Assembly (NCBI GenBank): GCA_036265735.1
Contig: DATAOK010000050.1
Location: 3,968-67,967, forward strand
Direction of reading: 5' to 3'
DNA: 64,000 nt
Source: Gaiellaceae bacterium
Lineage (GTDB): Bacteria; Actinomycetota; Thermoleophilia; Gaiellales; Gaiellaceae
Shown: one piece after another, positions 1,426-52,091 of the stretch
Numbering within the stretch: position 1 is the first letter of the stretch
How the letters are laid out: each line of letters begins with the position of its first letter
The notes under the pieces: generated by a model
Databases searched by the model: none
Told to the model about the DNA's origin: nothing
What the model saw: the letters and a program-made list of their open reading frames with translations, nothing else
Translations under genes and position numbers: made by a program

Positions 1426-2451
1426 TCAGTAGCTGCTCGAAGTCTCCCAGAGGTTGATGTCGCTTTCGGTCGCGTAGCGCTCGATCTCGTCAAGCTCATC
1501 AGGCTCGAACGAAAGACCCTCGAGCGCCCGCACGTTCGCCTCGAGCTGCTCGTCACTCGACGCCCCCACGAGAGCGGACGTCACGCGCGGGTCGCGCAAG
1601 ACCCACGCAAGCGCGAGCTGTGCGAGTGACTGGCCGCGCCGTGCGGCGATGTCGTTGAGTGCGCGCACCTTCGCGAGCGTCGAGTCGTTCAGCTGGTCAG
1701 GCGAAAGTGACCCAGGCCTGCTCGCCCGGGAACCATTGGGTACGCCGTGCACATATCTGTCCGTGAGGAGTCCCTGCGCGAGAGGCGAGAAGACGATGCA
1801 GCCGATGCCGAGGTCGCCGAGCTCATCGAGTAAGTCGCCCTCGATCCAACGGTTGAACATCGAGTACGACGGCTGGTGGATCAAAAGCGGCGTTCCGAGG
1901 CCGCGCAGGATTTCGTGCGCTTCGCGCGTCATTCGTGCGGAGTACGAGGACACGCCAACGTACAGCGCCTTGCCTTGCCGCACAACCGTGTCGAGCGCGC
2001 CGAGCGTCTCTTCGAGCGGCGTTTCGGGGTCGTAGCGGTGCGAGTAGAAGATGTCGACGTAGTCGAGGCCCATGCGCGCCAGCGATTGGTCGAGCGATGC
2101 GAGCAGGTATTTTCGCGACCCCCACTCGCCGTATGGGCCCGGCCACATGTCGTAGCCCGCCTTCGTAGAGATCACGAGCTCGTCTCGGTACGGGTGGAGG
2201 TCGTCGCGGAGGAGTCTGCCAAAGGTCTCCTCGGCCGACCCGTACGGCGGGCCGTAGTTGTTCGCGAGGTCGAAATGGGTGATGCCGAGGTCGAACGCTC
2301 TGCGCACGATGGCGCGGCTGCGCTCAAGCGGCGCGTCACCGCCGAAGTTTTGCCAGAGTCCGAGCGAGATCGCCGGCAGGTGCAACCCGGAGATGCCGGA
2401 TCGGCGGTACTGCATCTGCTCGTAGCGGTTGTCGGCAGGCGCGTATGTCAT
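1426..2451 (-). CDS. aldo/keto reductase (YghZ/Tas-like)
   Basis: 341 aa. YRRSGISGLHLPAISLGLWQNFGG...GITHFDLANNYGPPYGSAEETFG and the overall length match the AKR family. Confidence 0.9.
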   Translation of the reverse strand: MTYAPADNRYEQMQYRRSGISGLHLPAISLGLWQNFGGDAPLERSRAIVRRAFDLGITHFDLANNYGPPYGSAEETFGRLLRDDLHPYRDELVISTKAGYDMWPGPYGEWGSRKYLLASLDQSLARMGLDYVDIFYSHRYDPETPLEETLGALDTVVRQGKALYVGVSSYSARMTREAHEILRGLGTPLLIHQPSYSMFNRWIEGDLLDELGDLGIGCIVFSPLAQGLLTDRYVHGVPNGSRASRPGSLSPDQLNDSTLAKVRALNDIAARRGQSLAQLALAWVLRDPRVTSALVGASSDEQLEANVRALEGLSFEPDELDEIERYATESDINLWETSSSY

Positions 2452-3251: not shown

Positions 3252-4264
3252 GACCGTCTCCTACGCACGAGCTGGTCGACCGAGACGGCGAGGATCACGA
3301 GGACGCCTGTCACCAGATACTGGTAGATGACCTCGACGCCGACGAGCGTCAGTCCGTTGCGGAAGACGCCGACGATGATTGCGCCGACGAGGGTTCCGAG
3401 CACACTCCCTCGCCCGCCGAAGAGGCTCGTGCCGCCGAGTACGACGGCGGTGATGGAGTCCAGGTTCTCCGTTGTCTGACCCGCGTTCGGATCGCCGAGC
3501 TCCGTGCGTGCTGCGAGCAGCATCGCAGCGATCCCGACGCAGAGTCCCGTGGTGACGTACACGCTGAGCGTGACCCGGCTGACTGAGACGCCTGTGAGGC
3601 GTGCAGCCTCGGGGTTGTCGCCTACGGCGTAGACGTGTCTACCCCAGGCGGTCTGCGTGAGCACGTACCACGCGACGCCGAAGATGATGAACATCAGGAC
3701 GACGCCGTACGTGAAGTCGGCGCCGACGAAGCGGAATGTCCGTCCAAAGAAGAGGAGCTCACTCGGCAGGTTCGGGTACGTGAGGTCCTTCGAGTAGATG
3801 TGAGTGAGTGCCAGCGCGATGTTGAACGTCCCGAGCGTGACGATGAAGGGCGGCAGGCGCACGCCGGTGACCAGTGCTCCGTTGAGAACGCCGAACCCAA
3901 TGCACGCGAGGATCCCGAGTGCGATCGCGAGAAGCGGCGTGACGCCGCTCGCGACGGCGAGCTTCGTCATCACGATCTGACCGAACGCCATCACCGTGCC
4001 GACAGAGAGATCGATTCCCGCGGTCAGGATCACGAGTGTCTGCCCGACGGCAAGCACGCCGACGACCATGACCTGCTGCAGAATCAGCGAGAGGTTCTGT
4101 GCGTGCAGGAACGCATCGCTCTTGACGGAGAAGAACGCGCACGTGAGCACGAGCGCGAGGAGCGGCGCGACTCCCTGTGTGCCGAAGACGCGCCGCGCTG
4201 CTTCGAGTCCGCCGGGGCGAGGGGGCGCCGGCTCGGATGCTGTCGTGTCGCTCGTCGAGAGCAT
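3248..4264 (-). CDS. sugar ABC transporter permease (ribose/fructose-type, BPD_transp_2)
   Basis: 338 aa, polytopic. The TAGIDLSVG motif is typical of RbsC/FrcC-type permeases. Confidence 0.9.
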   Translation of the reverse strand: MLSTSDTTASEPAPPRPGGLEAARRVFGTQGVAPLLALVLTCAFFSVKSDAFLHAQNLSLILQQVMVVGVLAVGQTLVILTAGIDLSVGTVMAFGQIVMTKLAVASGVTPLLAIALGILACIGFGVLNGALVTGVRLPPFIVTLGTFNIALALTHIYSKDLTYPNLPSELLFFGRTFRFVGADFTYGVVLMFIIFGVAWYVLTQTAWGRHVYAVGDNPEAARLTGVSVSRVTLSVYVTTGLCVGIAAMLLAARTELGDPNAGQTTENLDSITAVVLGGTSLFGGRGSVLGTLVGAIIVGVFRNGLTLVGVEVIYQYLVTGVLVILAVSVDQLVRRRRS

Positions 4265-7389: not shown

Positions 7390-8061
7390 GAGCAGCGCGG
7401 CCGCCGCGGCGTCGAGCACGGCCGTCGTCGTACCGTCGACTGCGCGCACGAGGCTGCCGGGCGTTTCGTGTGACGGCTCGTCGCCGAACGCGCGCTTGCA
7501 CGCCTCGGCCTTGTCCGCTCCGCTGACGAGGAACAGCACCTCCCGCGCACCGCGCAGCACCGGCAGCGTGAGCGTGATGCGATCCACGAAGGGCTCGTGC
7601 TTCGCCTCCGCACCGATCACACGACGGCCTGTCACGTCCAATGTCGGCTGCGAGGGAAAGAGCGATGCGATGTGCCCGTCCGGACCCAGGCCGAGCAGCA
7701 GGAGATCGAACCGCTCGAGCGATCCCAGCTCGTCCTCGTACTCCGCCGCGCCCGCCTCGCGCCCGAGCTCGCCGCGCATGCGATGCACGGCGCCCGTCGT
7801 GACGTGGTCGAGCAGTGCCCCTTTCGCCATCCGGTAGTTCGACCGCTCGTCGTCGATGGGGACGCAGCGCTCGTCGCCCCACCACAGCTCGACGCGCGAC
7901 CAGTCGGGCTCGAGCTTCGCTGCGAGCTCGTACGCGACCCGTGGCGTCGAGCCGCCGGTCAAGACGACGTGACCTCCGGAACCTGCCGCCGCCGCGAGCC
8001 GCTCCGCCACGACCTGTGCCGGGTTCTCCGCGATGACGATCCCGATGTCGTCAGCTGCCAT
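7387..8061 (-). CDS. pgl: 6-phosphogluconolactonase
   Basis: 224 aa. VVLTGGSTP...ELWWGDERCVP...LLLLGLGPDGHIASLFP are signatures of the family. Confidence 0.85.
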   Translation of the reverse strand: MAADDIGIVIAENPAQVVAERLAAAAGSGGHVVLTGGSTPRVAYELAAKLEPDWSRVELWWGDERCVPIDDERSNYRMAKGALLDHVTTGAVHRMRGELGREAGAAEYEDELGSLERFDLLLLGLGPDGHIASLFPSQPTLDVTGRRVIGAEAKHEPFVDRITLTLPVLRGAREVLFLVSGADKAEACKRAFGDEPSHETPGSLVRAVDGTTTAVLDAAAAALL

Positions 8062-8851
8062 CTGCGAGCTCGCGTGCCCGCGTCATCGCCGCCTGAATCG
8101 CGTTCAGGAAGGCCGCCCGCACGCCTGCTTGCTCGAGCTCGCGAATCGCGGCGATCGTCGTCCCGCCCGGCGACGTGACGGACTCGCGCAGCTCCACGGG
8201 ATGCATCTTTTCGTCGCGGAGCTGCTTCGCCGTTCCGAGCATCGTCTGGACGACGAGCGTCGTCGAGATCTCGCGAGACAGGCCGAGCAGGATCCCAGCC
8301 TCGATCATCGCCTCCGCTAGTAGTGCGAAGTACGCCGGCCCGGATCCAGAGACGGCCGTGATCGCATCCATCGCCTGTTCCGGGACGCGGACGACGCGGC
8401 CCAGATGGGACAGCACGTCCTCCGCGATCGCGAGCTGCCGGTCGCCTGCATGTGCGCCGGGGGCGATTCCCGCCATGCCCTCGTGCACCGTCGACGGTGC
8501 GTTCGGCATGGCCCGCACGACAGGCACGCCGTCGGCGAGCTTCGCCTCGATTCGCGCCGTCGGGATCGCTGCGGCAACCGAGATCACCGTCTGCTCGGGT
8601 GCCAGCACGGAGCCGACGTCGTCGAGCAACGCTTCAATGTCCTGCGGCTTCACGGCGATCACGACGATCGCTGCGCCGCGAACCGCATCGCCGTTCGACG
8701 TCGTCGCATCCACGCCGTGCCGCTCGGCGAGCTCGGCCACTCGCTCCGCACGCCTGCTCGTCACGACGATGTCGCTCCAGCCTGCGCTCAGCAGCCCGGA
8801 GAGCAAGGCTTCACCGATGCGGCCGCCGCCGATGATCGCGATGCGCTGCAT
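8051..8851 (-). CDS. proC: pyrroline-5-carboxylate reductase
   Basis: MQRIAIIGGGRIGEAL Rossmann N-terminus and the C-terminal VTSPGGTTIAAIRELE motif. Confidence 0.9.
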   Translation of the reverse strand: MQRIAIIGGGRIGEALLSGLLSAGWSDIVVTSRRAERVAELAERHGVDATTSNGDAVRGAAIVVIAVKPQDIEALLDDVGSVLAPEQTVISVAAAIPTARIEAKLADGVPVVRAMPNAPSTVHEGMAGIAPGAHAGDRQLAIAEDVLSHLGRVVRVPEQAMDAITAVSGSGPAYFALLAEAMIEAGILLGLSREISTTLVVQTMLGTAKQLRDEKMHPVELRESVTSPGGTTIAAIRELEQAGVRAAFLNAIQAAMTRARELADGS

Positions 8852-8860
8852 GGGCGGAGG

Positions 8861-9703
8861 TTACGCGGCGACGAGCCCGCGCGAATAGCCGGTGAGGAGA
8901 TACATGCTCGCGAGACCGGACCACCGGCCGTACGGCTCGAGCAGCTCCGCGGTCTCCCAGCCCTCGACCGGACGCCCGCGCATCGCGCGCAGAAGCTTGA
9001 TGAGACCGAGGTCGCCGACGAGCCCGTAGTCGTACCGTCCAAGCCCTTGCAGGCACACCACACCGACGGACCACGGCCCAAGCCCGCGCTCGCGCTCGAG
9101 CCTTTCCGCGACCACCGATGTTTCGATGTCGTGGAACCGCTCGAGCTCAATCGACCTGCACAGGCGCACCAACGAAGCGCCGCGCCGCGCGTGCAAGCCG
9201 AGCGCGCGCAGGCGCGACGGTGCGAGTGCACCGAGGTCGTCCGTCGTCGGCGCGACGTGCAGCGACTCCGGGCCCGCAGGACAGATCGACCTGATGATCG
9301 TCTGCTCGAGCCGCCGCGCCCGCTTCGCCTCGATCAACTGTCCGCAGTACGCGCGCAGCAGGGCCTGCGCGACCGTCGCGACGCGCACGGGCCGTAGGCC
9401 GCGCAGCGCGCGCGATGCCCGCCCGAGCATCGGATCGTCCCGTACCGCACGCAGGAAGTCGGAGTGGTCGTCGTCGAGCGCGAGGACCCAGCGCAATCGC
9501 TCGACCGCCGCAAGAGACTCTCCGCGGATCGTCACCGTCCCGTCGGTCGACTGCCACGCGCGCGCAAGCTGCGGCGCGCCGTCCACTGCAAGCACCGCTG
9601 TGAAGAGCCCTTCGCGAAATGTCCGCGTCGCATCGCTCGCGAGTCGCGCGGACAGCGCGAGCGAGTACGGCCCGCGTGGTCGAACCGCAAGCTCAGCCGT
9701 CAA
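8861..9703 (-). CDS. DNA-3-methyladenine glycosylase II-like HhH-GPD protein (AlkA family)
   Basis: The HhH-GPD region is LRALGLHARRGASLVRL...GLGPWSVGVVCLQGLGRYDYGLVGDLGL. The track ORF runs to 9844 but that part overlaps the upstream gene. I place the start at TTG 9703..9701, overlapping the upstream TGA. The start is uncertain. Confidence 0.7.
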   Translation of the reverse strand: MTAELAVRPRGPYSLALSARLASDATRTFREGLFTAVLAVDGAPQLARAWQSTDGTVTIRGESLAAVERLRWVLALDDDHSDFLRAVRDDPMLGRASRALRGLRPVRVATVAQALLRAYCGQLIEAKRARRLEQTIIRSICPAGPESLHVAPTTDDLGALAPSRLRALGLHARRGASLVRLCRSIELERFHDIETSVVAERLERERGLGPWSVGVVCLQGLGRYDYGLVGDLGLIKLLRAMRGRPVEGWETAELLEPYGRWSGLASMYLLTGYSRGLVAA

Positions 9704-11034
9704 TGCTCGGCGCGGACGCCCTCGGGCGCAGCGCGCATGCTGAGCTCCGCCGCGCGGTCGAGCACGTCCAGCGCTTCCGTCTCCGCACCCGTCTGGCGGA
9801 GCATCCGGCCCCACGCGCGGCACGCGGTTGCCGCGTGGCGCCACCGTCCCTGTTCCTCGAGGATGCCCACTGCCTCAGCGTACGTGTCGCCTGCGACGGT
9901 GCTATCGCCGACCATCACGAGCCCGTCTGCGAGCGCGGACAACGCGAGAGCACGGTCGACAGGGGACGTCTCGCCCGCGAGCGAGATCGCGAGACGGGCA
10001 AGGCGTACGGCCTCCTCACCGTTTCCTTGCAGGGCCGCGACACGCGACCGCTGCGTCGTGATCTCGAAGCGCTCCTGCGGCGTGACGTTCGCTCCGAGCA
10101 GCGCGTCCGCCTCGTCGAGATGCGTCGCGGCTGCGGCGTGGTCCTCGCGGGAAAGCGTGATGTAGGCGGCGAGAATGTGCGCGCGCGCGAGATTGAGCGT
10201 GTCCTCGGTCGCCTGCAACAACGCGATCGCCTTCCGAACGTTCGTCAGGGCGACCGACTCGCGTCCTTCCGTGTGGGCGAGGCGCGCCATCGACCAGTAG
10301 AGGCGTACGCGCATGTACGGGTCGCCCGTGTCCTTCACGCGCTTGAGGGCATGTCGCACGACTTCCTCGGCGCGCCCGAGGTCGCCCATGTCGCTCAGCA
10401 CATAGCTCAGCAGCGTCGCGTACCGCGCCTCGGCCGTCGTGTCGCCGCGCTCCGAACAGCCGTCGATGCATCGCTCGAACAACTCGACGGCCTCCTGCGG
10501 GCGGCCGGCCTCGGTGTACGCCTTGCCGAGGTTGTAGTAGAGGTCGAAGCGGTCGACCGGGTCGAACGCCTCGCCCTCGAGCGCTTCCTCGAGCAGCATT
10601 GCCGAGCGCGCGTACTCGCGCTTGTTCTGGAGGAACAACGCGAGCGCGAAGCGCGCACGCGATGCCGACGGACGATCGCCGTCGGCGACCGATTCGCGAA
10701 TCGCTTCGTTGAGTGCCTCCTCTGCCCCCTCGTCCTCACCGAGACGAATCGCGAGCTCGAGGTCGATCAGTCGCAGCTCGCGTGCAGCGCGCGGATCGAC
10801 GTCGGATCCCGTCTCGAGGTAGTCGGCCGACACGCCGAGCTTCGCGGCGAGCCGACGCAATGCTTTGACGGAAGGCTGTCGCGATCCCGCTTCGATGCGC
10901 GAGATGTAGGCGTACGAGACTCCAGGGGCGGCCAACTCACGCTGGGAGAAACCCTTCTCCAGCCGCAGGCGCTTGAGCCGCTCCCCAATCGTCTCGCCCG
11001 CGGCTTGCGGAGATTCGGGATGCACCGGATCCAA
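9700..11034 (-). CDS. XRE-family HTH regulator with a long TPR-like C-terminal domain (RRNPP-receptor-like architecture)
   Basis: 444 aa. The HTH is IGERLKRLRLEKGFSQRELAAPGVSYAYISRIEAGSRQPSVKALRRLAAKLGVSADYL, followed by about 370 aa of repeated helical-hairpin (TPR-like) sequence. TTG start at 11034; GTG 11025 is an alternative. Confidence 0.85.
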   Translation of the reverse strand: MDPVHPESPQAAGETIGERLKRLRLEKGFSQRELAAPGVSYAYISRIEAGSRQPSVKALRRLAAKLGVSADYLETGSDVDPRAARELRLIDLELAIRLGEDEGAEEALNEAIRESVADGDRPSASRARFALALFLQNKREYARSAMLLEEALEGEAFDPVDRFDLYYNLGKAYTEAGRPQEAVELFERCIDGCSERGDTTAEARYATLLSYVLSDMGDLGRAEEVVRHALKRVKDTGDPYMRVRLYWSMARLAHTEGRESVALTNVRKAIALLQATEDTLNLARAHILAAYITLSREDHAAAATHLDEADALLGANVTPQERFEITTQRSRVAALQGNGEEAVRLARLAISLAGETSPVDRALALSALADGLVMVGDSTVAGDTYAEAVGILEEQGRWRHAATACRAWGRMLRQTGAETEALDVLDRAAELSMRAAPEGVRAEH

Positions 11035-11115
11035 TTGTGACGGGTTGCCTCGGGTTCGTCAATCGCTACCGCTTGACAACGCGAAGCGCGCTTGTTCTTT
11101 TCGACGGCACACCCC

Positions 11116-11137
11116 GAGTCCCTCGTCCGAGGGACTC
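11116..11137. promoter_or_regulatory. perfect inverted repeat GAGTCCCTC-GTCC-GAGGGACTC upstream of small peptide gene 1
   Basis: Seen directly. It ends 7 nt before the Shine-Dalgarno sequence of the 11157 ORF. It could be an operator or a 5'-UTR hairpin. Confidence 0.4.
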
Positions 11138-11156
11138 CCGAACAAAGGAGGAGCTC

Positions 11157-11255
11157 ATGCTCCGCAACACCACCTACGTCCGCCTGGTCGTCCTCATGAC
11201 GATCCTCGCGGCGCTCGCCCTGATGCTCGGCAGCGAGCCCTGGGGCCCCGCGTAG
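11157..11255 (+). CDS. 32-aa short hydrophobic peptide, paralogue 1 (MLRNTTYVRLVVLMTILAALALMLGSEPWGPA)
   Basis: ATG preceded by AAGGAGGAG at a 5-nt spacing, in frame with track ORF 11037..11255. It has a paralogue 83 nt downstream. The shared C-terminus differs only by synonymous changes. Confidence 0.6.
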   Translation: MLRNTTYVRLVVLMTILAALALMLGSEPWGPA

Positions 11256-11338
11256 GCCGGCGGCCTGCGGCAGGAACGAGGGCGCACGTCCCTTTTCCCA
11301 CACCGCGTCCCGAAGGGGCGCCTACCCAAGGAGGAGCT

Positions 11339-11437
11339 TTGCTTCGCAACACCCTCTATCTGAAGTTCTTCGTCGTCATGGTCGTCCTGGCGTCGCTCGC
11401 ACTCATGCTCGGCAGCGAGCCGTGGGGCCCCGCATAG
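11339..11437 (+). CDS. 32-aa short hydrophobic peptide, paralogue 2 ((TTG)LLRNTLYLKFFVVMVVLASLALMLGSEPWGPA)
   Basis: TTG preceded by AAGGAGGAG at a 4-nt spacing, in frame with track ORF 10973..11437. Same 99-nt length as paralogue 1, and 23/32 residues identical. Confidence 0.55.
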   Translation: MLRNTLYLKFFVVMVVLASLALMLGSEPWGPA

Positions 11438-11453
11438 GTCGATAAACGCTACG

Positions 11454-11480
11454 GCGGGCGGGAGTGCGACTCCCGCCCGC
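11454..11480 (+). terminator. 12-bp perfect stem-loop GCGGGCGGGAGT-GCG-ACTCCCGCCCGC
   Basis: Seen directly, 16 nt after the peptide-2 stop and 14 nt before the next GTG start. There is no U-tract. Confidence 0.5.
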
Positions 11481-11494
11481 TGTACCCTCGCGCC

Positions 11495-12925
11495 GTGACG
11501 GTCGTCGAGCTTTGCGTCTACGCGCTGCTCCTCGCCGTCGGAGCGGCCGTCGTCTGGCGCTGCCCGCTCGCCGCGCTCTACCTCTTCGTCGTCGGTCTCG
11601 CGCTGCACAACGCCGTGATGGCGGCGCTCTACAAGGCCGGCGTCCACGGAGCGACGCTCACCACGATCACCGCGTGGAAGGAGATCCTGCTCGCGGTCGC
11701 ATTGCTGCACGTCGCGCTCGACGCATGGCGCGAGCGGCGGCTGCCGTTCGCGTGGAACGTCATCGACTGGATCGCCGTCGCCTTCGCGACGTTGGCAATT
11801 CTCTATGTGTTCATTCCACAGTCCGCGCTCGACGGCGCCGCCGACCACAAGGCGATTGCACTCGGCCTGCGTCACGACGTCGTCCCGGTTGGCGCGTACT
11901 TCCTCGGACGCTCGCTCATCATGCGGCGCGAAGACCTCTACCGCATCGGCTGGACGCTGCTCGGCGTCGGCGCCTTCGTCGCGGCCCTCGGCATCGTCGA
12001 CATGTATGCGGTCTCGATCGGCTGGTGGCGGACGAACGGAGTGATCGACTACTTCCATCGGCACCTCGGCTACGACTACCACGGCACCGGCACGCGGACG
12101 GAGTCGACCGGCGCCGTGTACGGCCTGCCCGAGAACTTCATCTACAACGTCGGGAACGACAAGCCGTTCCTGCGGCGCCTCGTCTCGACGTTCCTCTCTC
12201 CGCTCGCAAGCGGCTATCTCTTCGTCGTCGCACTGCTGATCGGCTTGCACGCACGTGCACTCGCCGTTGCGCTGTCCGTCGTCGTCGCGGCAGGCCTACT
12301 CTTCACGTTCTCGAGGTCGTCGCTCGTCGCACTTGCCGGCGCGCTCGTTGTCCGCGCGATCTTGCGCCGCCGTCCCCAGGAGCTCGCCACTGCCGTCGTC
12401 GTGATCGCGGTCGCCGTGGGGTGGGCGCATCTCTTTCCGAAGATCGGCCCGACCGGCCACTTCACGAAGACCGACCTGACGTATCAGCACGCGCAGGCAA
12501 CGAAAGGGCCTGCGACGGGCAACTTCACGGCCGTGAGCGAGAACGAGCCGTCGCTGCACGAGCACTGGACGAGCCTGAAGGACGGCGTGCGCACGATGGT
12601 TCATCATCCGCAGGGCTACGGCCTCGGCAACGTCGGCCAGACCGCGTCGCGCACGGGGACGCCGCTGAAAGCCGGCGAGTCGAACTACACGGAGCTCGGC
12701 GTCGAGCTCGGCGTGATCGGGTCGCTCCTCTGGATTGTGTGGAACCTCGGCGCGCTCTGGCTCGTCCGCCACGAGGTGCGCATCGCCGCTGCGTTCGCCG
12801 CGATTCTCGCGCTTGCGATCCAGACCGACGTGATCGGCGACCCGTGGGTCGCGTATTGCGTCTGGGGTCTCGTCGGGGCATCTGTCCCAAAGAGCGTCTT
12901 GTGGGCGCGCAGCTCGCACATCTAG
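11495..12925 (+). CDS. O-antigen ligase/polymerase-like (Wzy_C family) polytopic membrane protein
   Basis: 476 aa with many TM segments. LLFTFSRSSLVALAGALVV and the periplasmic-loop/C-terminal GESNYTELGVELGVIGSLLWI resemble Wzy_C signatures. Confidence 0.8.
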   Translation: MTVVELCVYALLLAVGAAVVWRCPLAALYLFVVGLALHNAVMAALYKAGVHGATLTTITAWKEILLAVALLHVALDAWRERRLPFAWNVIDWIAVAFATLAILYVFIPQSALDGAADHKAIALGLRHDVVPVGAYFLGRSLIMRREDLYRIGWTLLGVGAFVAALGIVDMYAVSIGWWRTNGVIDYFHRHLGYDYHGTGTRTESTGAVYGLPENFIYNVGNDKPFLRRLVSTFLSPLASGYLFVVALLIGLHARALAVALSVVVAAGLLFTFSRSSLVALAGALVVRAILRRRPQELATAVVVIAVAVGWAHLFPKIGPTGHFTKTDLTYQHAQATKGPATGNFTAVSENEPSLHEHWTSLKDGVRTMVHHPQGYGLGNVGQTASRTGTPLKAGESNYTELGVELGVIGSLLWIVWNLGALWLVRHEVRIAAAFAAILALAIQTDVIGDPWVAYCVWGLVGASVPKSVLWARSSHI

Positions 12926-44211: not shown

Positions 44212-45219
44212 GTGGTCGAAGCGAGACGTCAGCCGCCGGCCGAAGAGAGCGACGCCGCCGCTGAGTCGGCACGCCGCCTGCTGGAGAACATCGGGCGGGT
44301 CGTCGTCGGCAAGCCGGAGGAGGTCGCCCTCGTCATCGCGGCGTTCATCTCGGGCGGCCACGTGTTGCTCGAGGACGTCCCGGGCACGGCGAAGACGATC
44401 CTCGCCCGGGCCCTCGCCCAGTCGATCGACGGGGCCGCCTTCGCGCGGATCCAGTGCACGCCCGACCTCCAGCCGACCGACGTCACCGGTCTCTCGATCT
44501 TCAACCAGAAGACGCGCGAGTTCGAGTTCCGTGCGGGGCCGGTGTTCGCGAACGTCGTGCTCGTCGACGAAGTCAATCGGGCCATGCCGCGCACCCAGTC
44601 CGCGCTGCTCGAGGCGATGGCCGAGAAGCAGGTCACGGTGGACGGCGCGTCGCGCCGTCTTCCCGAGCCGTTCCTCGTGATCGCGACGGAGAACCCGATC
44701 GAGCAGGAGGGGACATTCCCGTTGCCCGAGGCGCAGCTCGACCGATTCGCATTGCAGACCGCGCTCGGGTATCCGACCGAGGACGAGGAGGTCTCGATCG
44801 TCGTTGCGCAGCGGCACGGTCATCCGCTCGACGAGCTCACCGCCGTCGTGACCGCGGACGAAGTCCGCGCGCTCGAGCGCGCCGTCGAGAACATCTACGT
44901 CGACGAGCTCATCCTGCGCTGGATCGTCGAGCTCGTCCGCGCGACGCGCCGCGTCGAGGGCGTTGCGACCGGCGCATCGGTGCGCGGCAGCCTCACGCTC
45001 GAGCGGACGGCCCGTGCCTGGGCGCTGCTGCACGGGCGCGCGCACGTCGTGCCGGAGGACGTGGAGCTGCTGTTCCTGCCTGTGCTCGGCCACCGCCTCC
45101 TTTTGACCGCGTCCTTCCTCGCCGAGACCCGGACGCTCGGCCGCGAGGAAGCGCTCGGTCGAATCCGCGCGCGCTGCCTGGAGCTCGCTCCAGCTCCTGC
45201 GCCGGACTGGGACGGGTGA
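44212..45219 (+). CDS. MoxR-family AAA+ ATPase
   Basis: GHVLLEDVPGTAKTILARALA (Walker A), VVLVDEVNRAMPRTQSALLEAM (Walker B / sensor). 335 aa. Confidence 0.9.
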   Translation: MVEARRQPPAEESDAAAESARRLLENIGRVVVGKPEEVALVIAAFISGGHVLLEDVPGTAKTILARALAQSIDGAAFARIQCTPDLQPTDVTGLSIFNQKTREFEFRAGPVFANVVLVDEVNRAMPRTQSALLEAMAEKQVTVDGASRRLPEPFLVIATENPIEQEGTFPLPEAQLDRFALQTALGYPTEDEEVSIVVAQRHGHPLDELTAVVTADEVRALERAVENIYVDELILRWIVELVRATRRVEGVATGASVRGSLTLERTARAWALLHGRAHVVPEDVELLFLPVLGHRLLLTASFLAETRTLGREEALGRIRARCLELAPAPAPDWDG

Positions 45220-45223
45220 GCGC

Positions 45224-46129
45224 ATGTCCGCCCGCGAGCGGCGCACGTTCCCGCTCGTGCCGCGGCGGCGCCTGACGGGCCTGCCGTTCGGCGACCTGCC
45301 CAGCCGCCGGCGCGGCCACGGCACCGAGGTGATCGGCTCGCGGCCGTACGAGCCCGGCGATCCGGTCTCGACGATCGACTGGTTCGCATCGGCGCGCCTT
45401 TCGTCCGCGAGCGGCGGCGACGAGTTCATCGTCCGCGACCGCGCTGCAGACGAGGCGCCCCGCGTGACCATCCTGCTCGACCGGCGTCCCGCGATGGGGC
45501 TGTACCCACCCCCGTTCCCCTGGCTGTCGAAGCGTGAGGCGCTGCGCGAGGCGGCGATCTCGATCGCTGCGAGCGCCGCGGTCGCGCGGGCCGACATCGC
45601 GGCGCTCGACTACGGCACCGGTGAGCCGTGGTGGCTGCCCCCCGGCCGCCGCGACCGGCCGTGGATCGTGGCGGCACGCGCGGCCGAAGCACCCTTCGAG
45701 GCGCCGGAGGACAACGTGGTCCAGGCCCTGACGTACCTCGCCCAGCGCCGTACCGACGTTCCCGGCGGCACCTTTCTCTTTGTCATCTCCGACTTCCTCG
45801 AGCCCGTGCCCCCTGACGCGTGGCTCGACGCGGTCGGCCACGGCTGGGACGTCGTGCCGGTCGTCATCCAGGATCCGGTGTGGGAGCGAAGCTGGCCGGA
45901 GGTCGCCGGCGTCGGGCTGCCGGTCGCGGATGCGGGGCTCGTCAGGCTCGGCCGCCGGCAGGCGGCGCGCCTGCGCTCGGAGCATGAGGCCCGCTACGCC
46001 GGGCTACTCGCGGAGCTGCAGTCGGTCGGCCTACGGCCGGTCGAGCTCGACTCGAGCGAGCCGTACATCGTCGACGAGGCGTTCCTCGCCTGGGCGGAGG
46101 AACGGCGCCGGGGGAGGTGGGCACGATGA
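45224..46129 (+). CDS. DUF58 family protein (vWA-like; MxaS/BatA-upstream type)
   Basis: ...GHGTEVIGSRPYEPGDPVSTIDWFASAR...ILLDRRPAM... is the DUF58 pattern, in the canonical position after MoxR. Confidence 0.85.
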   Translation: MSARERRTFPLVPRRRLTGLPFGDLPSRRRGHGTEVIGSRPYEPGDPVSTIDWFASARLSSASGGDEFIVRDRAADEAPRVTILLDRRPAMGLYPPPFPWLSKREALREAAISIAASAAVARADIAALDYGTGEPWWLPPGRRDRPWIVAARAAEAPFEAPEDNVVQALTYLAQRRTDVPGGTFLFVISDFLEPVPPDAWLDAVGHGWDVVPVVIQDPVWERSWPEVAGVGLPVADAGLVRLGRRQAARLRSEHEARYAGLLAELQSVGLRPVELDSSEPYIVDEAFLAWAEERRRGRWAR

Positions 46130-46941
46130 AGCGCGTCTTCTTCGTCGCGCTGCTCGCGGCCGCGTTCGCGCCGGCCGCAACCGCCGCGCCGCTGAAGGCG
46201 CGAGCCGCGTTCGACGACGCCACGGTGCAGTTCGGTGACGTCGTCCACACGCGCGTCACCGTCGTCGTCGACGCGAGCGTGCGCGCGGCCTCGGTTCGCG
46301 TCGTGGACGATCCCGCGCCGCTGACAACCGTGTCCTTGCCGCGGACGTCCCGCGCCGGCAACGTGATCGAGGTCTCGCGCGATGCGATCTGCGTGACGTC
46401 AGCGTGCGTGTCGGACAGCGGCGTCACGACGCCGAGGCTCGCTCCGGCGCTCGTGCGCGCGACGCTGAAGAGTGGCCGCACGGTTCAGGTCGCCGTGCAG
46501 TGGCCGCAGCTGACCGTCCGCGGCCGCGTGACCGGCGGCGACCTCGGTCGCTCGCAGCCGCCGTTCCGGGCGTCGCTGCTGCCGCCCGCTCCGACATACC
46601 GGACCTCGCCGGGCGCGCTCGCGTGGCTGCTCGACGCGGCGGCGATCGCTCTCGGGCTCGCCGCTGCGGGGCTCGTTCTGCTGCAGGCCCGCAGGTGGAT
46701 GCGCACTCGCGGGCGCGCGGCGCCTGCGGACGAGCTCGAGCGCGCGCTGCGGCTTGCGCGCGAGGCGGAGCTGCGGCCGCCGCCTGATCGGCGCCGGGCC
46801 GCGGGGCTGCTCGCACGCCTGCTCGGGGAGCGAAACGCGGCGCTCGCGGGGAGCGCGAGCGACCTTGCGTGGCGAGAGCCGCAACCTGAGCCCGGCGCGC
46901 TCGAGTCGCTCGTCGGCGACGTCGAGCGAGGACGCGAATGA
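46126..46941 (+). CDS. hypothetical exported protein with a C-proximal TM segment (position of MxaA / BatD-like)
   Basis: ATGA overlap with DUF58. Signal peptide MKRVFFVALLAAAFAPAATA. TM segment LAWLLDAAAIALGLAAAGLVLL. No family recognised. Confidence 0.6.
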   Translation: MKRVFFVALLAAAFAPAATAAPLKARAAFDDATVQFGDVVHTRVTVVVDASVRAASVRVVDDPAPLTTVSLPRTSRAGNVIEVSRDAICVTSACVSDSGVTTPRLAPALVRATLKSGRTVQVAVQWPQLTVRGRVTGGDLGRSQPPFRASLLPPAPTYRTSPGALAWLLDAAAIALGLAAAGLVLLQARRWMRTRGRAAPADELERALRLAREAELRPPPDRRRAAGLLARLLGERNAALAGSASDLAWREPQPEPGALESLVGDVERGRE

Positions 46942-47753
46942 GCTCGATCCCGCTTGCCGACGCGCCGGCGCTGCGCGAGCCCGCGAAACGGACGTTCGCG
47001 GTTCGCCAGCTGCTCGCGCTCGTCTGCATCGCCGCGCTCATCTCGATCGCACTGCTCGCGCGGCATCCGCACACGCGCACCATCGTTCCGCTCCCGGCCG
47101 GCGGGCAGACCGTGCTCGTCCTCGACATGTCGGCGAGCATCTCGACCGACACGTTCTCGCGGATCGGCGGGACGCTCTCCGCGCTCTCTCACAGCGGCAC
47201 GCATTTCGGGCTCGTGCTCTTCTCCGACCAGGCCTACGAGGCGATGCCGCCGGGCACGCCGGCGTCCGATCTCGCGCCGTTCGTCCGCTACTTCACGCTG
47301 CCGCCGCAGAAGACGCCGGGCTTCGCGCCGGCGTTCCCGACGAATCCCTGGCAGGCGACCTTCACCGGCGGCACCAAGATCTCGGCCGGCCTCGACCTCG
47401 CGCACCGGATCGCCGTCGCAGGCAAGCATCCCGCCACCGTCGTGCTCGTCAGCGACCTCGACGACGATCCGGGCGACGTGCCGCGGCTCGCGTCGGTCCT
47501 GCTCGCATACCGCCGCGACCACGTCCCGGTGCGCATCGTCGGTCTCGATCCATCACCCGCCAACGTCGCGCTCTTCAAGAAGCTGCTCTCGCCTGCGCCG
47601 ATCGTCGCGCAGGCGCCGCTGCTCTCGGAGGCGCCGCCACACGACGTGACGCCCTTCCCGTGGTCGATCGTCGCGCTTGCGCTCGCCGCCGCCGCGGCGC
47701 TCGCGCTGCGGCTCGCGTGGGCGCCGCAACTCCAGTGGGGTGAGGCGAAGTGA
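46938..47753 (+). CDS. membrane-anchored vWA domain protein
   Basis: TM anchor then VLVLDMSASIS (MIDAS DxSxS)...VVLVSDLDDDPGD. C-terminal TM segment. Overlaps both neighbours by 4 nt. Confidence 0.75.
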   Translation: MSSIPLADAPALREPAKRTFAVRQLLALVCIAALISIALLARHPHTRTIVPLPAGGQTVLVLDMSASISTDTFSRIGGTLSALSHSGTHFGLVLFSDQAYEAMPPGTPASDLAPFVRYFTLPPQKTPGFAPAFPTNPWQATFTGGTKISAGLDLAHRIAVAGKHPATVVLVSDLDDDPGDVPRLASVLLAYRRDHVPVRIVGLDPSPANVALFKKLLSPAPIVAQAPLLSEAPPHDVTPFPWSIVALALAAAAALALRLAWAPQLQWGEAK

Positions 47754-48364
47754 GCATCGTGCGGCTCGCACTCGCAGCCGTGCTGGCGGCCGCGGCCGTC
47801 TGCGCGGTGTTGCTCGCAAACGACGTTCGCACCACGCGTGACGCTCTGCATAACGGCGACGTCGTCTACGCCGCAACGCCGTCGCGTGCGACGTGGACTG
47901 CTGATACGACCTTCGGCGGCGCCGCTGCGTCGCTCATCGGCACAAGGGATGACGCCGAGTTCCGCGAGGCACTGCAGCACTACGTCGACGCGTCGAAGCT
48001 GCAACTGCGGCTCGACAACGCCGTCGACGTCGAGGGTGCGCGCGGACGCGCACAGGACATCCTCGAGCAGGCGGCCCGCACCGGCGATCCGCAGCGTGCG
48101 TCACAGGCCTTGACGCTGCTCGGCATCCTCGCCTACCGGTCGGCCGCGTCGGGGACGACGCAGAGCCAGGTCGACGCTGCGATCGCGGACTTCACGGACG
48201 CGACGCGCGCGGACCCAGGCAATACCGACGCAGCGTTCGATCTCGAGCTCCTTCTACGGCTCACGACTGCGCACGGGTCGCGCGTGCAGACGGGGCAGGG
48301 CGGCGGCTTCGGGCGCGTGGGGCGCCGGGGTGCCGGCGGCGGCCAGCCCGGGAGTGGCTACTGA
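47750..48364 (+). CDS. membrane-anchored helical (TPR-like) protein with a Gly-rich tail (position of MxaK / BatC)
   Basis: GTGA overlap upstream. TM anchor, a helical repeat-like region, and a C-terminal GQGGGFGRVGRRGAGGGQPGSGY. Confidence 0.55.
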   Translation: MSIVRLALAAVLAAAAVCAVLLANDVRTTRDALHNGDVVYAATPSRATWTADTTFGGAAASLIGTRDDAEFREALQHYVDASKLQLRLDNAVDVEGARGRAQDILEQAARTGDPQRASQALTLLGILAYRSAASGTTQSQVDAAIADFTDATRADPGNTDAAFDLELLLRLTTAHGSRVQTGQGGGFGRVGRRGAGGGQPGSGY

Positions 48365-49329
48365 TGACGTTCTTGACGCCGTTCTGCCTCTTCTTCACGC
48401 TCGCATCGCTGCTGCCGCTCGTTGCCGCGCTTGTCTCGCGCACGCGGACAGATCTCGTCCGCAGGCGGCTGGGCCTGCCGGCACCGGAGCGGGCGACCGA
48501 GCTCCGGCCGCTGCTCGCTGCATCGGCGGTCGCGCTCGCCGGCCTTGCCGCCGCCCAGCCTGCGGTCACGCGGTCGTCGCATCCGCGAAGCCGCACGGAC
48601 GTACAGGCGGTGTTCGTGCTCGACACCTCGCGTTCGATGGCGGCCTCGACGTCGCCGACCTCGCCGACGCGTCTCGACCGCGCGGCCGCGGCGGCGATCG
48701 CGCTGCGCAACGAGATCCCCGACGTGCCGGCCGGGGTGCTCACCCTGACCGACCGCGTCTTGCCCGACCTCCTTCCGGTGTCCGATGTCGGCGGCTTCGA
48801 CGGCGTCGTCAGCCGCGCGGTCCGGATCGAGAGCCCGCCGCCGCAGGCGACGTCGGTCCGCGCGACGACCTTCTCGGCGCTCGGCCAGATCGCCTCCGGC
48901 GACGTCTTTCCGCCCTCGGCGACGAAGCGGATCGTCGTCCTGCTGACCGACGGCGAGAGCAGCCCCGTTGGAACCTCCGATGTCGCCCGCTCGCTCGCGG
49001 GCTACCGCTTCGAGGCGGTGCGGCTCTGGGCGTCGAACGAGTTGGTCTTCAAGGAGGACGGCACGCCCGAGGCGGCGTACCGGCCCGATCCGAGCGGCCG
49101 CGTCGTCCTCGCCGATCTCGCGTCGTCGCTCGGAGGGAAGAGCTTCGAGCAGGATCAACTCAAGGCGGCGACGCGTTACCTGCGCTCGCTCGCCGGCAGC
49201 GGCAGCACGGTCGCGGGTGCTGCCACGGAGGAGCATCGGTACCCGCTCGGCCCGTATGTCGGACTGCTCGCGCTCGCCGCCCTGCTCGCTTTCATCGGTC
49301 CGACAGCGGTACGATTGACCAAGCAATGA
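48364..49329 (+). CDS. BatA-like membrane vWA domain protein
   Basis: MTFLTPFCLFFTLASLLPLVAAL N-terminus typical of BatA. VFVLDTSRSMAAS (MIDAS)...VVLLTDGES. C-terminal TM segment. Confidence 0.8.
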   Translation: MTFLTPFCLFFTLASLLPLVAALVSRTRTDLVRRRLGLPAPERATELRPLLAASAVALAGLAAAQPAVTRSSHPRSRTDVQAVFVLDTSRSMAASTSPTSPTRLDRAAAAAIALRNEIPDVPAGVLTLTDRVLPDLLPVSDVGGFDGVVSRAVRIESPPPQATSVRATTFSALGQIASGDVFPPSATKRIVVLLTDGESSPVGTSDVARSLAGYRFEAVRLWASNELVFKEDGTPEAAYRPDPSGRVVLADLASSLGGKSFEQDQLKAATRYLRSLAGSGSTVAGAATEEHRYPLGPYVGLLALAALLAFIGPTAVRLTKQ

Positions 49330-52091
49330 GTCGGCGCGCCCTCTTTCGCGCGCTCGCCGCAGCCCTGGTCGTGGCCGCGGCAGGAGTGCTTCTCACCTCG
49401 GCGGCTGCGCGGAACAGCGCCTCGCTCAACGTGGGCTGGGGCGGTTTCGGCAACACACCGGACGAGAACCGCCACTCGCCGCTGACGGACATCACGCCGA
49501 AGAACGCGTCCCAGCTCGCGCGCGTGTACATGGTCGACTTCCACGCGATCGACGCGGGCACACGGCGCGGCGAGCAGTCGTTCCCCGTCGAGGCGAACGG
49601 CACGTTGTACGTGACGACGAACGACGACAACGTGTGGGCGGTCGACGCGCTCACCGGCAAGGTCAAGTGGCGCTGGACGCCGGATGATGTCGCAGTCTTC
49701 AGGAACTTCGGCATCGTCGCCAACCGCGGCGTTGCGCTCTGCGACGGTCACGTCTTCGAGTTGACGCTCGACATGACGATCGTGTCGCTCGACGCGCAGA
49801 CCGGAAAGCTCGAGAAGCAGGTGCCGATCGCGCGCGCGGTTCCTGGGGCCTCGTCGAACTACGGTTACTCTGAGACAAGCGCGCCGATCTGCGCGAATCA
49901 CCACGTGATCATCGGCGCGGCGGGCTCCGAGTACGGGGTCCGCGGCTTCGTCATGGCGTATCACACCGACCTCACGCCGGCGTGGCCGAATCCGTTTTGG
50001 ACGATCCCGCCCGCCGGTACCGAGTGGCGCAAGAACGGCACGCTCGTCGGCGGCGGTGTCGTGTGGACGCCGACGACGGTCGATCCGACGACGAACACGC
50101 TCTACTTCGGCACGGGCTCGGCGACGCCGCTCTACTTCCCGCAGATCCGGCCCGGCTCGAACCCGCGCGCGGACTCGCTCGTCGCGGTCAACCTCTCGAC
50201 CGGGCGCATGAAGTGGTGGCAGCAGCAGATGGCGCACAACGAGTGGTCATACGACACTGCGCAGCCTCCGCTCGTCTACACCGCGAAGGTCGGCGGCAAG
50301 ACTGAGCGCGTCGTCTCCGTCGCGACGATGGAGGGCGTCTGGTTCGCGTACGACGCGGCGACGGGGCGTCCGATCTATCAGCGCGTCAAGGTCATCGACC
50401 GTACAGAGCACCCCACGCTGAAGCCCGGCAAGCCGGTCGCCGTCTTCCCGTCGTCGCTCGGCGGCCTCAACTACTCGCCCGCGTCGTTCGACCCGAAGAC
50501 GAACTACATCTACAACGCGGCGGCGGAGACGGCTGCGATCGATGTGCAGACGGAGCTGACGCCGACGCAGAAGAAGCGGAAGTTCACGCTCGGCGACGTG
50601 TTCCTCGGCCTGCAGAACGGCAACTTCGGGACACTGCTGCCCGGCTGGAAGGACCACGGCTCGATCAGCGCGATTGACGTCAACACCGGCAAGCGCGTCT
50701 GGAAGTTCCAGACCCCCGAGCCGGAGCGCGGCGGCGTCACGACGACCGACGGCGGCGTCGGGTTCGCGGGCGGCGGCGACGGCGTGCTCCGCGCATTCGA
50801 CGCGAAGACGGGCAAGGTGCTCTGGACCTATCAGTGCGGCGCGCCGATCGCCGCAGGCCCGTCGGTGTACTCGATCAACGGGAAAGAGTTCGTCGCAATC
50901 ACGGTCGGCGGCACACCGACGTCGTCCAACGGCGGCACGCTCAGTCAGCTGCACGTGTTCTCGCTCGGCGGCACGACGACGCAGTCCGCGTCTCAGTCTG
51001 CGCCGCGTGCGCTTCAGGTCTTGCGGAAGCCGGCGCATGCGACGCGCGCAAAGCGTGTTGCGGCGACCGGCTTCGGCAGCATCGCGACACAGAGCGGGCT
51101 GAACGTGAAGCTGTGGGACGCCAACTCGTCGAACGTCCAGCATGTGACGGGACGGATTCTCCTGAACGGCGCGCCGGTCAAGGGCGCTGCGGTCGTGATG
51201 GACGGCTACCGCATCCCCGGCCTGACCGGCGCAAACGGCAGCTTCGCGACCGACGTCGACATCACGATCCCCGGCCGCCGATCGTTGCGGGTCGCATCGG
51301 TCAAGGGCGCGACGTTGCGCGGCAAACCGCTTACTGCGGGCCAGCAGAGCGCGGTGCTCGGCGCGTCCGGCGGCTTCAGCATCGGCTACGGCATCACCGG
51401 CCTGCACGCGGCGAGGCAGAGCGACGGCAGCATCCTTGTGACGGGGCGGCTCGCCGGCGCGAACAAGCAGGCGCCGCCGCTCGTGCACCTCCTGACCTAC
51501 CAACTCGGCGGCACGATTACCGACGCGTCCGGCAAGCCCGTTGCGGGCGCCGTTGTGATCACGCGCACGCAGGACCGCGACTTCTGGACGCACTCGTCCG
51601 CGTCGGATGCGAACGGGCACTACACGTCGTTCTTCTCCGCTTCCGACGAGTCGGGTGCCGATCCGGTTCCTCTTGCGGTCGGCGTCGCGCAGGGCAGCGT
51701 CTCGTACGGCGGCAATCTCGGCACGAACGTCAACTTCGCGCTGCTGAAGAGCGCGACGATGAACATCCATCTGGGCGCCGGGACGAGCTACACGGTGCTG
51801 CCGCCGGCCGAGCGCGGCGGCGCGGTGTACTCCGGGCTCGTCGTCGGGGTCGTCAGCGGCGGCAAGGTCGTCAAGCCGCTCGCAGAGCGGTGGCCGAGCG
51901 GGAACGGGACGTTCTCGATGAAGCTGCCGGCGTCCGTCCGCGGCAAGACCGTGCGCTTCTGGGAGAACCTCCGCCAGTCGTTCTCGAGCTTCGCCGCGAG
52001 ACCGGGCGGCCCGATCGACCTCAGCACCTGGCCGGCGGCCCTCGGCGATTCGGTGCCCGTGGGTATGGCTTCGCTCAAGCTTCCGGGTTAG
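49326..52091 (+). CDS. PQQ-dependent dehydrogenase-like 8-bladed beta-propeller protein with a C-terminal extension of about 330 aa (carboxypeptidase-regulatory-like repeats)
   Basis: ATGA overlap with the upstream vWA gene (internal ATG of track ORF 48330..52091). MSRRALFRAL... is a Tat-like N-terminus. PQQ-enzyme repeats include ...GTLYVTTNDDNVWAVDALTGKVKWRW... and ...VLRAFDAKTGKVLWTYQ... The C-terminus has GRILLNGAPVKGAAVV...GANGSF and GTITDASGKPVAGAVVITRT...DANGHY. Confidence 0.85.
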   Translation: MSRRALFRALAAALVVAAAGVLLTSAAARNSASLNVGWGGFGNTPDENRHSPLTDITPKNASQLARVYMVDFHAIDAGTRRGEQSFPVEANGTLYVTTNDDNVWAVDALTGKVKWRWTPDDVAVFRNFGIVANRGVALCDGHVFELTLDMTIVSLDAQTGKLEKQVPIARAVPGASSNYGYSETSAPICANHHVIIGAAGSEYGVRGFVMAYHTDLTPAWPNPFWTIPPAGTEWRKNGTLVGGGVVWTPTTVDPTTNTLYFGTGSATPLYFPQIRPGSNPRADSLVAVNLSTGRMKWWQQQMAHNEWSYDTAQPPLVYTAKVGGKTERVVSVATMEGVWFAYDAATGRPIYQRVKVIDRTEHPTLKPGKPVAVFPSSLGGLNYSPASFDPKTNYIYNAAAETAAIDVQTELTPTQKKRKFTLGDVFLGLQNGNFGTLLPGWKDHGSISAIDVNTGKRVWKFQTPEPERGGVTTTDGGVGFAGGGDGVLRAFDAKTGKVLWTYQCGAPIAAGPSVYSINGKEFVAITVGGTPTSSNGGTLSQLHVFSLGGTTTQSASQSAPRALQVLRKPAHATRAKRVAATGFGSIATQSGLNVKLWDANSSNVQHVTGRILLNGAPVKGAAVVMDGYRIPGLTGANGSFATDVDITIPGRRSLRVASVKGATLRGKPLTAGQQSAVLGASGGFSIGYGITGLHAARQSDGSILVTGRLAGANKQAPPLVHLLTYQLGGTITDASGKPVAGAVVITRTQDRDFWTHSSASDANGHYTSFFSASDESGADPVPLAVGVAQGSVSYGGNLGTNVNFALLKSATMNIHLGAGTSYTVLPPAERGGAVYSGLVVGVVSGGKVVKPLAERWPSGNGTFSMKLPASVRGKTVRFWENLRQSFSSFAARPGGPIDLSTWPAALGDSVPVGMASLKLPG

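Follow-up and report, generated by a model that had tools for sequence, protein, structure and literature searches.

A PlcR-like regulator paired with divergent small peptide genes in Gaiellaceae: a candidate for RRNPP-type signalling outside the Firmicutes

Peptide signalling by way of cytoplasmic receptors built from tetratricopeptide repeats (TPRs) is regarded as a trait of the Firmicutes, and the Actinobacteria are thought to signal by small molecules, the butyrolactones for example (PMC10075063, PMC9765709). A survey of the RRNPPA receptors places them in the Firmicutes and, within these, nearly all in the Bacilli (PMC9765709). We report the analysis of a cassette from a Gaiellaceae bacterium, found in a stretch of 64,000 nucleotides of contig DATAOK010000050.1 (referred to here as the window; G+C content 68.4%), in which a gene for a regulator with an XRE-type helix-turn-helix (HTH) and a TPR domain stands divergent from two small genes, pepA and pepB, that encode short peptides with a common C-terminal tail. 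A preliminary description of the same DNA had taken RRNPP systems to be known essentially from the Firmicutes, which agrees with both of the reports cited (PMC9765709, PMC10075063), and a full-text search of the literature, judged by title and abstract, found no description of an RRNPP- or PlcR-type system in the Actinomycetota.

The receptor of the PlcR/PapR system joins an XRE HTH to a peptide-binding TPR domain, and a small adjacent gene encodes a precursor whose active part is C-terminal and some 5–8 residues long; the Gaiellaceae cassette is alike in the domains of its regulator and in a small adjacent gene whose presumed active part, of similar length, is C-terminal. The signature that has been used to recognise RRNPP systems in silico, so far applied to Firmicutes and viruses, consists of a propeptide of 10–100 aa, its export, a receptor of 250–500 aa, TPRs and the adjacency of the two genes (PMC10075063). 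Formally, all five can be recognised here, with export as a possibility suggested by the composition of the peptides. In the terms used for RRNPP(A) receptors, the regulator is a protein of 441–444 aa with a TPR-type domain and an N-terminal XRE HTH, and pepA and pepB are adjacent small open reading frames (ORFs) of between 10 and 100 aa with ribosome-binding sites. We regard RRNPP-type signalling as a well-founded hypothesis for this locus, which is in our analysis a strong candidate for such a system outside the Firmicutes.

The regulator, the small genes and the conservation of the pair

The genes of the cassette lie in the window as follows:

9700..11034, minus strand: regulator with HTH (XRE) and TPR domains; longest ORF 444 aa, likely 441 aa from GTG 11025
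11157..11255 (stop codon included), plus strand: pepA; ATG start; 32-aa precursor MLRNTTYVRLVVLMTILAALALMLGSEPWGPA
11339..11437, plus strand: pepB; TTG start; 32 aa, (M)LRNTLYLKFFVVMVVLASLALMLGSEPWGPA; tandem paralogue of pepA

The preliminary description had read the 444-aa protein of the minus strand as an N-terminal XRE HTH followed by TPR-like repeats, and this is borne out by matches in Pfam to HTH_3 (residues 20–73, E 1.2e-13) and to the TPR families TPR_12 (E 1.6e-16), TPR_MalT (E 1.5e-14) and TPR_8 (E values for the repeats spanning 1.6e-16 to 2.8e-11), as well as by the AlphaFold2 model. The latter, computed with 73 homologues as input, has a mean pLDDT (predicted local distance difference test) of 89.4 and consists of a five-helix HTH that leads, through a linker helix, into about nine helical hairpins. 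The two divergent ORFs of 32 codons, with strong Shine-Dalgarno sites and identical over their last 13 residues, are likewise present in the sequence as they had been described, with 122 bp between the annotated TTG start of the regulator and the start of pepA. Each follows AAGGAGGAG, a strong ribosome-binding site, at a distance of 5–6 nt. The two genes form a tandem duplication with a unit of 182 nt, and among the codons for the 13 shared residues there are four synonymous differences and none that is non-synonymous.

More than 2,500 homologues of the regulator are found at E ≤ 1e-5, most of them 441 aa in length; the best 120 show 63–95% identity and, where a source is named, come only from metagenome-assembled genomes (MAGs) of the Gaiellaceae. 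Across the family the HTH is almost invariant. Within the TPR region, conservation is maximal in the central repeats (helices A2–A4 and B3), where many Arg, Tyr and Trp residues are invariant, and the most conserved of the TPR helices is A3 (DPYMRVRLYWSxARL), in which, above all, the conserved polar and aromatic residues are concentrated. By the usual geometry of such repeats, the A helices would line the concave face of the TPR domain.

The association of the regulator with a small divergent gene was examined in two sets of related loci, the first comprising 80 loci, with one genome per species, and the second a further 80 loci from a scan of metagenomes that was seeded with a paralogous subgroup. 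The loci of the first set come almost entirely from MAGs of Gaiellaceae, Thermoleophilia or Actinomycetota, with a few from Solirubrobacteraceae. Pairing was counted in the 144 loci whose sequence reaches 300 nt or more upstream of the regulator gene, and in 129 of these at least one divergent small ORF lies at a distance of 100–250 bp on that side (single in 105 loci, double in 22 and triple in 2). When the first 80 loci, each of up to about 9 kb, were scanned elsewhere in all six frames for an ORF of the same type, only one displaced copy was found, in locus L007, and a comparable scan of the 64-kb window returned none besides pepA and pepB. Since 129 of 144 related loci have an ORF of this type in the corresponding position, and such ORFs were found essentially nowhere else, the small ORFs of the window are no chance occurrence. 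The expectation, set out in the preliminary description, that orthologues of the regulator should keep beside them a small ORF with a conserved C-terminal tail is strongly supported by this count.

The precursors are 27–36 aa in length and are built from an n-region (median 9 aa) with one to three Lys or Arg residues, an uncharged run (median 17 residues) that ends most often with G, S, T or A, all of them small residues, and a tail of 5–8 residues. The tail closes with P-W-G-P followed by no or one further amino acid and is polar and aromatic in character (xEPWGPx). Among 46 aligned members, invariance is confined to M1 and to the P, G and P of the tail; the Trp is kept in more than 90%, and the hydrophobic segment varies freely. 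Because the codons for Pro, Gly and Pro of the tail each occur in three to four synonymous forms, among 126 unique nucleotide sequences, the constraint lies on the amino acids and not on the DNA; the ratio of non-synonymous to synonymous differences (pN/pS) across orthologues is saturated (pS ~0.5) and weakly informative. Ribosome-binding sites are strong in all of the members examined. On these comparisons, the tail is best explained as the constrained, functional part of the precursor.

Such peptides have already been gene-called in public data, and neither Pfam nor NCBIfam holds a model for the family. A search of a representative library with the pepA and pepB peptides returned 32 clusters at E ≤ 1e-3, of which 31 are such peptides and none is annotated. 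The remaining cluster, P0141, is a repetitive protein of 1,235 aa that contains IG[SN]DPWGPAPSDG six times, which is probably a chance resemblance.

A signal- or anchor-like N-terminal segment is present in 152 of the 155 peptide ORFs found (~97%). Three loci, L074, L077 and L079, form a clade, with regulators that are 58–73% identical to each other and with the same promoter architecture, and here the ORFs are without the hydrophobic segment: they read MYPWGS, MTPWGS and M(ETRSGVWPWGS)x2, respectively, and each stands behind a ribosome-binding site. They lie on the minus strand, upstream of the regulator, at ~3790–3815 in L074, ~3830–3850 in L077 and ~3350–3420 in L079; a GC hairpin follows the mini-ORF in L074 and L077, and the mini-ORF of L079 contains an internal tandem duplication. 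The leaderless 8-aa peptides that are encoded beside RopB receptors in streptococci provide a precedent for such mini-ORFs (PMC10518010). Because these three loci drop the hydrophobic segment yet keep the PWG tail, a purely membrane-structural role for the peptide is disfavoured. A small integral membrane protein or type I toxin, whose transmembrane segment would be the conserved core, was considered and rejected for the family, in which the hydrophobic segment varies freely and is missing in these loci, where PWG is kept.

Paralogous cassettes offer a view of the tail and the regulator side by side. In three MAGs, two cassettes that differ in their tails occur together: OTE_51 has GGEPWGPN (L018) and AEGPIGPFGI (L048), palsa_556 has GELPWGPA (L043) and GEGPIGPW (L080), and SMAG_U11002 has GPWPP (L046) and LIVGP (L076). 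Neighbour-joining groups the P[IV]GP cassettes in a single clade that is sister to PWGP loci, with L076 as an independent case. Both of these independent changes of the tail, from W to I or V, coincide with a change in helix A3 from RVRL to RIRL, RVRI, RVRV or RIRI, a coincidence that fits co-variation of a receptor and its ligand. A specificity-position analysis between the tail classes singled out few positions (V243I, Y246F, A182E and V183I), and these are confounded by phylogeny because the P[IV]GP class is a single clade.

Comparison with described receptor–peptide systems

In a profile search against proteins of solved structure, PlcR is the best natural match to span both the HTH and the TPR region. 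Its alignment with the family profile (E 1.6e-9) is one colinear block (family 10–203, PlcR 3–201) that takes in the HTH, the linker and the first TPRs. Higher ranks are taken by a fungal kinesin-light-chain-like TPR protein, by a protein derived from it and by an engineered TPR protein, all of which match in the TPR repeats only. Besides the features that it shares with PlcR/PapR, the Gaiellaceae cassette differs from that system in several respects. The receptor is ~150 aa longer, with about nine hairpins as against the five TPRs of PlcR; the peptide gene is divergent, whereas papR lies downstream; and the precursor is of 32 aa rather than 48 aa and has no long pro-region. The host is an actinobacterium, and the tail is nearly invariant, in contrast to the four pherotypes of PlcR/PapR.

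The Rgg/SHP and PrgX/PrgQ systems of streptococci and enterococci are closer in the form of the small gene, with precursors of ~22–35 aa that have a basic N-terminus and a hydrophobic stretch, as here. Their mature peptide comes from the extreme C-terminus, as is presumed here, and in many cases peptide and receptor genes are transcribed divergently (PMC10075063), again as in the Gaiellaceae cassette. The mature short hydrophobic peptides (SHPs) and iCF10 are hydrophobic, however, whereas the tail here is polar and aromatic (xEPWGPx), and neither Rgg nor PrgX gave a sequence match to the regulator in the profile search. The earlier comparison of the small genes with SHP-type propeptides is thus apt for the basic N-terminus, the uncharged stretch and the conserved tail, and fails for the presumed mature tail, which is not hydrophobic.

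The ultrashort, leaderless ORF that lies divergent from the receptor gene in the RopB/SIP system (PMC10518010) resembles the M-x-PWGS of L074 and L077. Here, though, the leaderless form occurs in one related clade only and not in the window, and the leaderless communication peptides of the RopB type are hydrophobic, of 8–10 aa, and are paired with an Rgg-type receptor. NprR, which is 423 aa in length and comprises an HTH and nine TPRs, is similar in size to the regulator. It was, however, not recovered by the sequence profile and is not among the top 50 Foldseek matches, and nprX lies downstream of its receptor gene on the same strand, whereas the peptide genes here are divergent.

Readings of the cassette

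The architecture of the regulator and the conservation of both pair and tail are direct observations, and their best explanation is a vertically inherited, two-gene module of the Gaiellaceae/Thermoleophilia that consists of a PlcR-like cytoplasmic regulator and one to three divergent precursor genes. Each step of the mechanism that we propose for this module is drawn by analogy with the RRNPP systems. The basic N-terminus and the uncharged stretch of ~17 residues would carry the precursor into or across the membrane, and a short tail, SEPWGPA for example, would then be freed outside the cell. Once re-imported, the tail would bind in the concave groove of the TPR domain of the regulator, and this binding would shift the occupancy by the regulator of the shared divergent promoter region, giving feedback on the peptide genes and perhaps on their neighbours. 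We favour this full model of a secreted signal, that is, of an RRNPP-like receptor–peptide cassette, tentatively and as something a little short of probable; that the tail binds the adjacent regulator, in whatever setting, we hold with somewhat greater confidence. Possible, if somewhat more doubtful, is the broadest form of the claim, namely that this is the first RRNPP-type system outside the Bacillota, an ancient cassette inherited on the chromosome in the Thermoleophilia, a deep-branching class of actinobacteria, with a near-invariant P-W-G-P core, a paralogous and orthogonal P-[IV]-G-P channel within the same genomes and both leader-bearing and leaderless peptide genes.

The Gaiellaceae are abundant and almost uncultured actinobacteria of soil; a cultured relative, Gaiella occulta, has been described (PMC6741124). 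If the signalling model is true, the known phylogenetic range of cytoplasmic-receptor peptide signalling widens, and a synthetic peptide of the form xEPWGPx becomes a physiological probe for these organisms. The near-invariant tail is in itself unusual and could mean a signal that is lineage-wide rather than strain-specific. Even if the tail is not a ligand, small proteins that lack annotation, share a strict four-residue C-terminus and are tied to one regulator form a family that is a well-defined target for study.

A number of points weigh against the signalling model, and the structural comparison is the first of these. A Foldseek search of the PDB with the regulator returns LGN/Pins and other generic TPR superhelices at the top (E ~1e-7), with PlcR at rank 24 and the pLS20 Rap protein at ranks 34 and 44; for the two together, E values are ~1e-6 to 2e-5 and template modelling (TM) scores only 0.30–0.48. 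The profile search, for its part, reaches no RRNPP member besides PlcR, save for the HTH alone of ComR. Because generic TPR proteins outrank PlcR and Rap, the fold does not tell the regulator apart from proteins of that generic kind; the architecture of the regulator may be described as PlcR-like, with fold evidence that is non-discriminating. The likeness to RRNPP receptors put forward in the preliminary description is partly supported, by the profile match to PlcR and by the presence of PlcR and Rap among the Foldseek matches, behind generic TPR proteins.

The remaining points concern the peptide and its distribution. The co-variation of tail and helix A3 amounts to two events only, with one counter-example (L135, which has RIRL and keeps the W). 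In 15 of the 144 loci the scan found no peptide ORF, and several of these (L066, L067 and L078) have kept the regulator intact. Export of the products of the leaderless mini-ORFs would call for a route other than Sec, and no gene for an oligopeptide permease of the Opp type was found among the ORFs of the window that were scanned, which were some of the total. Known RRNPP pheromones usually diversify into pherotypes, and the tail core described here is nearly invariant across an order. Many RRNPP systems sit on mobile elements; this cassette sits in a syntenic region of the core genome, with the genes for an AlkA-like protein and for ProC downstream of the regulator, and in a scan of viral contigs the cassette was not found. 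As the matches in viral contigs are to the HTH alone, there is no phage-borne form of the cassette among them.

The peptides could, instead of signals, be regulated products with an extracytoplasmic role of their own, in the envelope, at the surface or in antagonism, in which case the regulator would be an XRE repressor with a TPR domain that senses something else. Control of divergent neighbours is common among XRE regulators, a basic N-terminus with an uncharged run of 17 residues in the median is compatible with a membrane anchor, and some loci retain the regulator without a peptide gene. In the near clade, moreover, the peptide gene adjoins the gene for an envelope protein, which in the window is:

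11495..12925, plus strand: Wzy_C (O-antigen-ligase-like) membrane protein, 476 aa; Pfam Wzy_C, E 2.4e-10

The linkage of the peptide to Wzy_C is, however, looser than its linkage to the regulator. The Wzy_C gene is syntenic in 53 of 80 loci, yet it is absent from many of the loci that keep the peptide. The order in the near clade is proC, alkA-like gene, regulator and, divergent from it, peptide gene(s), Wzy_C and a gene for a 153-aa protein; in a clade further removed, where the tail reads N[AG]x[STLF]PWGP-stop, the place of Wzy_C is taken by a protein that looks glyoxalase/VOC-like, as judged from its N-terminal sequence. Because the gene beyond the peptide changes between lineages, these comparisons indicate that the conserved unit is the regulator–peptide pair and not its neighbourhood, with Wzy_C as a neighbour outside the core module and a possible regulatory target. 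A role as a regulated product also has to contend with the strongest constraint falling on a C-terminal motif of four residues, which would be unusual for a membrane anchor, with a hydrophobic segment that is dispensable in L074, L077 and L079, where the PWG tail is kept, and with paralogous regulator–peptide pairs that were duplicated together. We consider this explanation unlikely, though it deserves to be taken seriously.

Less likely again, and in our view improbable, is a peptide that stays in the cell that makes it, where it would pair with the regulator or antagonise it, as SinI does with SinR, with neither export nor cell–cell signalling. The HTH of the regulator does resemble that of SinR, the mini-ORFs MYPWGS and MTPWGS carry no export signal, and the tail has not diversified into pherotypes. 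Against this, the signal- or anchor-like segment that 152 of 155 peptide ORFs keep would be needless in a cytoplasmic ligand, and by the positive-inside rule a peptide of this kind has its tail on the outer side.

Termination is known to be poor when the last residue ahead of the stop codon is Pro, and arrest peptides of the SecM, TnaC and ApdA type end in G-P or P-P. The Pro-stop context of the tail and the existence of six-codon mini-ORFs might accordingly speak for a cis-acting leader or arrest peptide, in which Gly-Pro-stop or Pro-x-stop stalls the ribosome and attenuates a downstream gene, as might the strong hairpin that follows the ORFs:

11450..11484, plus strand: GC hairpin with 16-nt arms and no U-tract, after pepB; terminator-like end of the peptide unit

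The hairpin has a folding energy of -35 kcal/mol (z -4.7; 0 of 200 shuffles equally stable), and most of the related loci have a hairpin in the corresponding position (median z -2.1, with z < -2 in 65 of 121). There is, however, no consistent downstream gene that could be attenuated: paralogous P[IV]GP cassettes sit elsewhere in the genome, with a convergent gene after the peptide in L050; a terminator-like hairpin and a tRNA-like sequence on the opposite strand follow the peptide in L079; and other genes follow it elsewhere. Wzy_C, for its part, appears to have a leaderless promoter of its own, since a conserved GCTGTACCCTCGC, found 6–7 nt before the Wzy_C GTG (window 11476..11497, and at the same place in L001–L024), probably represents such a promoter with TACCCT as its -10 box. 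The hairpin behind the peptide genes reaches with its 3' arm into the sequence that shortly precedes this element. With a strong hairpin that is followed by a separate, likely promoter for Wzy_C, the peptide genes look like a short, self-contained transcription unit. Tandem copies, strong ribosome-binding sites and a conserved hydrophobic segment are atypical of leader peptides, and an Rfam scan of 10800..11700 gave nothing above threshold, and so no leader element. A leader or arrest peptide is, on balance, very improbable.

Least credible of all is the precursor of a ribosomally synthesised and post-translationally modified peptide or a leaderless bacteriocin, as which small, multi-copy peptides with a conserved, Trp-containing C-terminus might be read, for these peptides are neither cationic nor amphipathic and their conserved flanks, comprising only the alkA-like gene, proC, Wzy_C and the gene for the unannotated 153-aa protein, hold no modifying enzyme, dedicated ABC exporter or immunity gene.

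The putative shared promoter region and the flanking genes

In the signalling model that we prefer, the regulator would act on the region that lies between the divergent genes, and the following elements were located there:

11062->11034, minus strand: regulator promoter-like site, TTGACG-17 nt-CACAAT, which ends 8 nt before GTG 11025
11073..11078, plus strand: TTGACA box, presumed -35 element of the peptide promoter
11116..11137, plus strand: perfect inverted repeat of 10+10 nt (GAGTCCCTCG tc CGAGGGACTC), located in the 5' leader shortly before the ribosome-binding site of pepA

The promoter-like site of the regulator was found once, where shuffled sequences lead one to expect 0.1, and its CGTCAA box is conserved in nearly all of the related loci. 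Because this site ends at the annotated TTG, and because the homologues are of 441 aa, the regulator probably starts at GTG 11025 and is translated from a leaderless mRNA into a protein of 441 aa. The likely leaderless regulator thus differs from the peptide genes, which carry strong ribosome-binding sites.

The GTCAA at 11058..11062 and the TTGACA box together form GTCAA-N10-TTGAC in the window. This pair of pentamers is conserved in 44 of 49 aligned intergenic regions, with a spacing of 7–24 nt (mode 14), and may represent either the back-to-back -35 boxes of divergent promoters or an operator of the regulator. As the spacing varies over 7–24 nt, the pentamers are possibly just two -35 elements and not the operator of a dimer. 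In some loci they are duplicated, as GTCAAatAGTCAA in L074, L077 and L079 and as TTGACAACAATTGAC in L052 and L059.

The inverted repeat of the 5' leader has a folding energy of -20.7 kcal/mol (z -1.8). Related loci have other sequences at this position, which by eye are likewise self-complementary. RNAalifold called only three pairs for the hairpin; since the MAFFT alignment placed the stems out of register, it yields no usable covariation statistic.

Downstream of the regulator, on the same strand, lie two further genes:

8861..9700, minus strand: distant AlkA-like 3-methyladenine DNA glycosylase; E 1.1e-4 to E. coli AlkA, no Pfam hit
8051..8851, minus strand: pyrroline-5-carboxylate reductase (proC), as read from the sequence; after the AlkA-like gene

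The AlkA-like gene overlaps the stop codon of the regulator. As matches to both genes are found downstream of the regulator in 61–70 of 80 loci, they may belong to an operon with it.

Several of the related loci show irregularities of their own. In L007 the peptide copies (1688..1783 and 3761..3856) are ~1.9 kb apart, one adjoining the regulator and the other Wzy_C, which suggests that they were separated by an insertion. The peptide ORF of L042 is frameshifted, and in L051 no more than part of the tail can be recognised, separated from Wzy_C by other sequence; these defects could be errors of assembly or true decay. Among the loci without a peptide gene, L057 has a degenerate helix A3 (LLGQVRLHRSLGRL), and L066, L067 and L078 keep the helix intact.

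Elsewhere in the window, and unrelated to the cassette, the plus strand encodes a MoxR-type AAA ATPase, a DUF58 protein and a VWA-domain protein in a row (44212..47753) and a PQQ beta-propeller protein of 1,253 aa (48330..52091).

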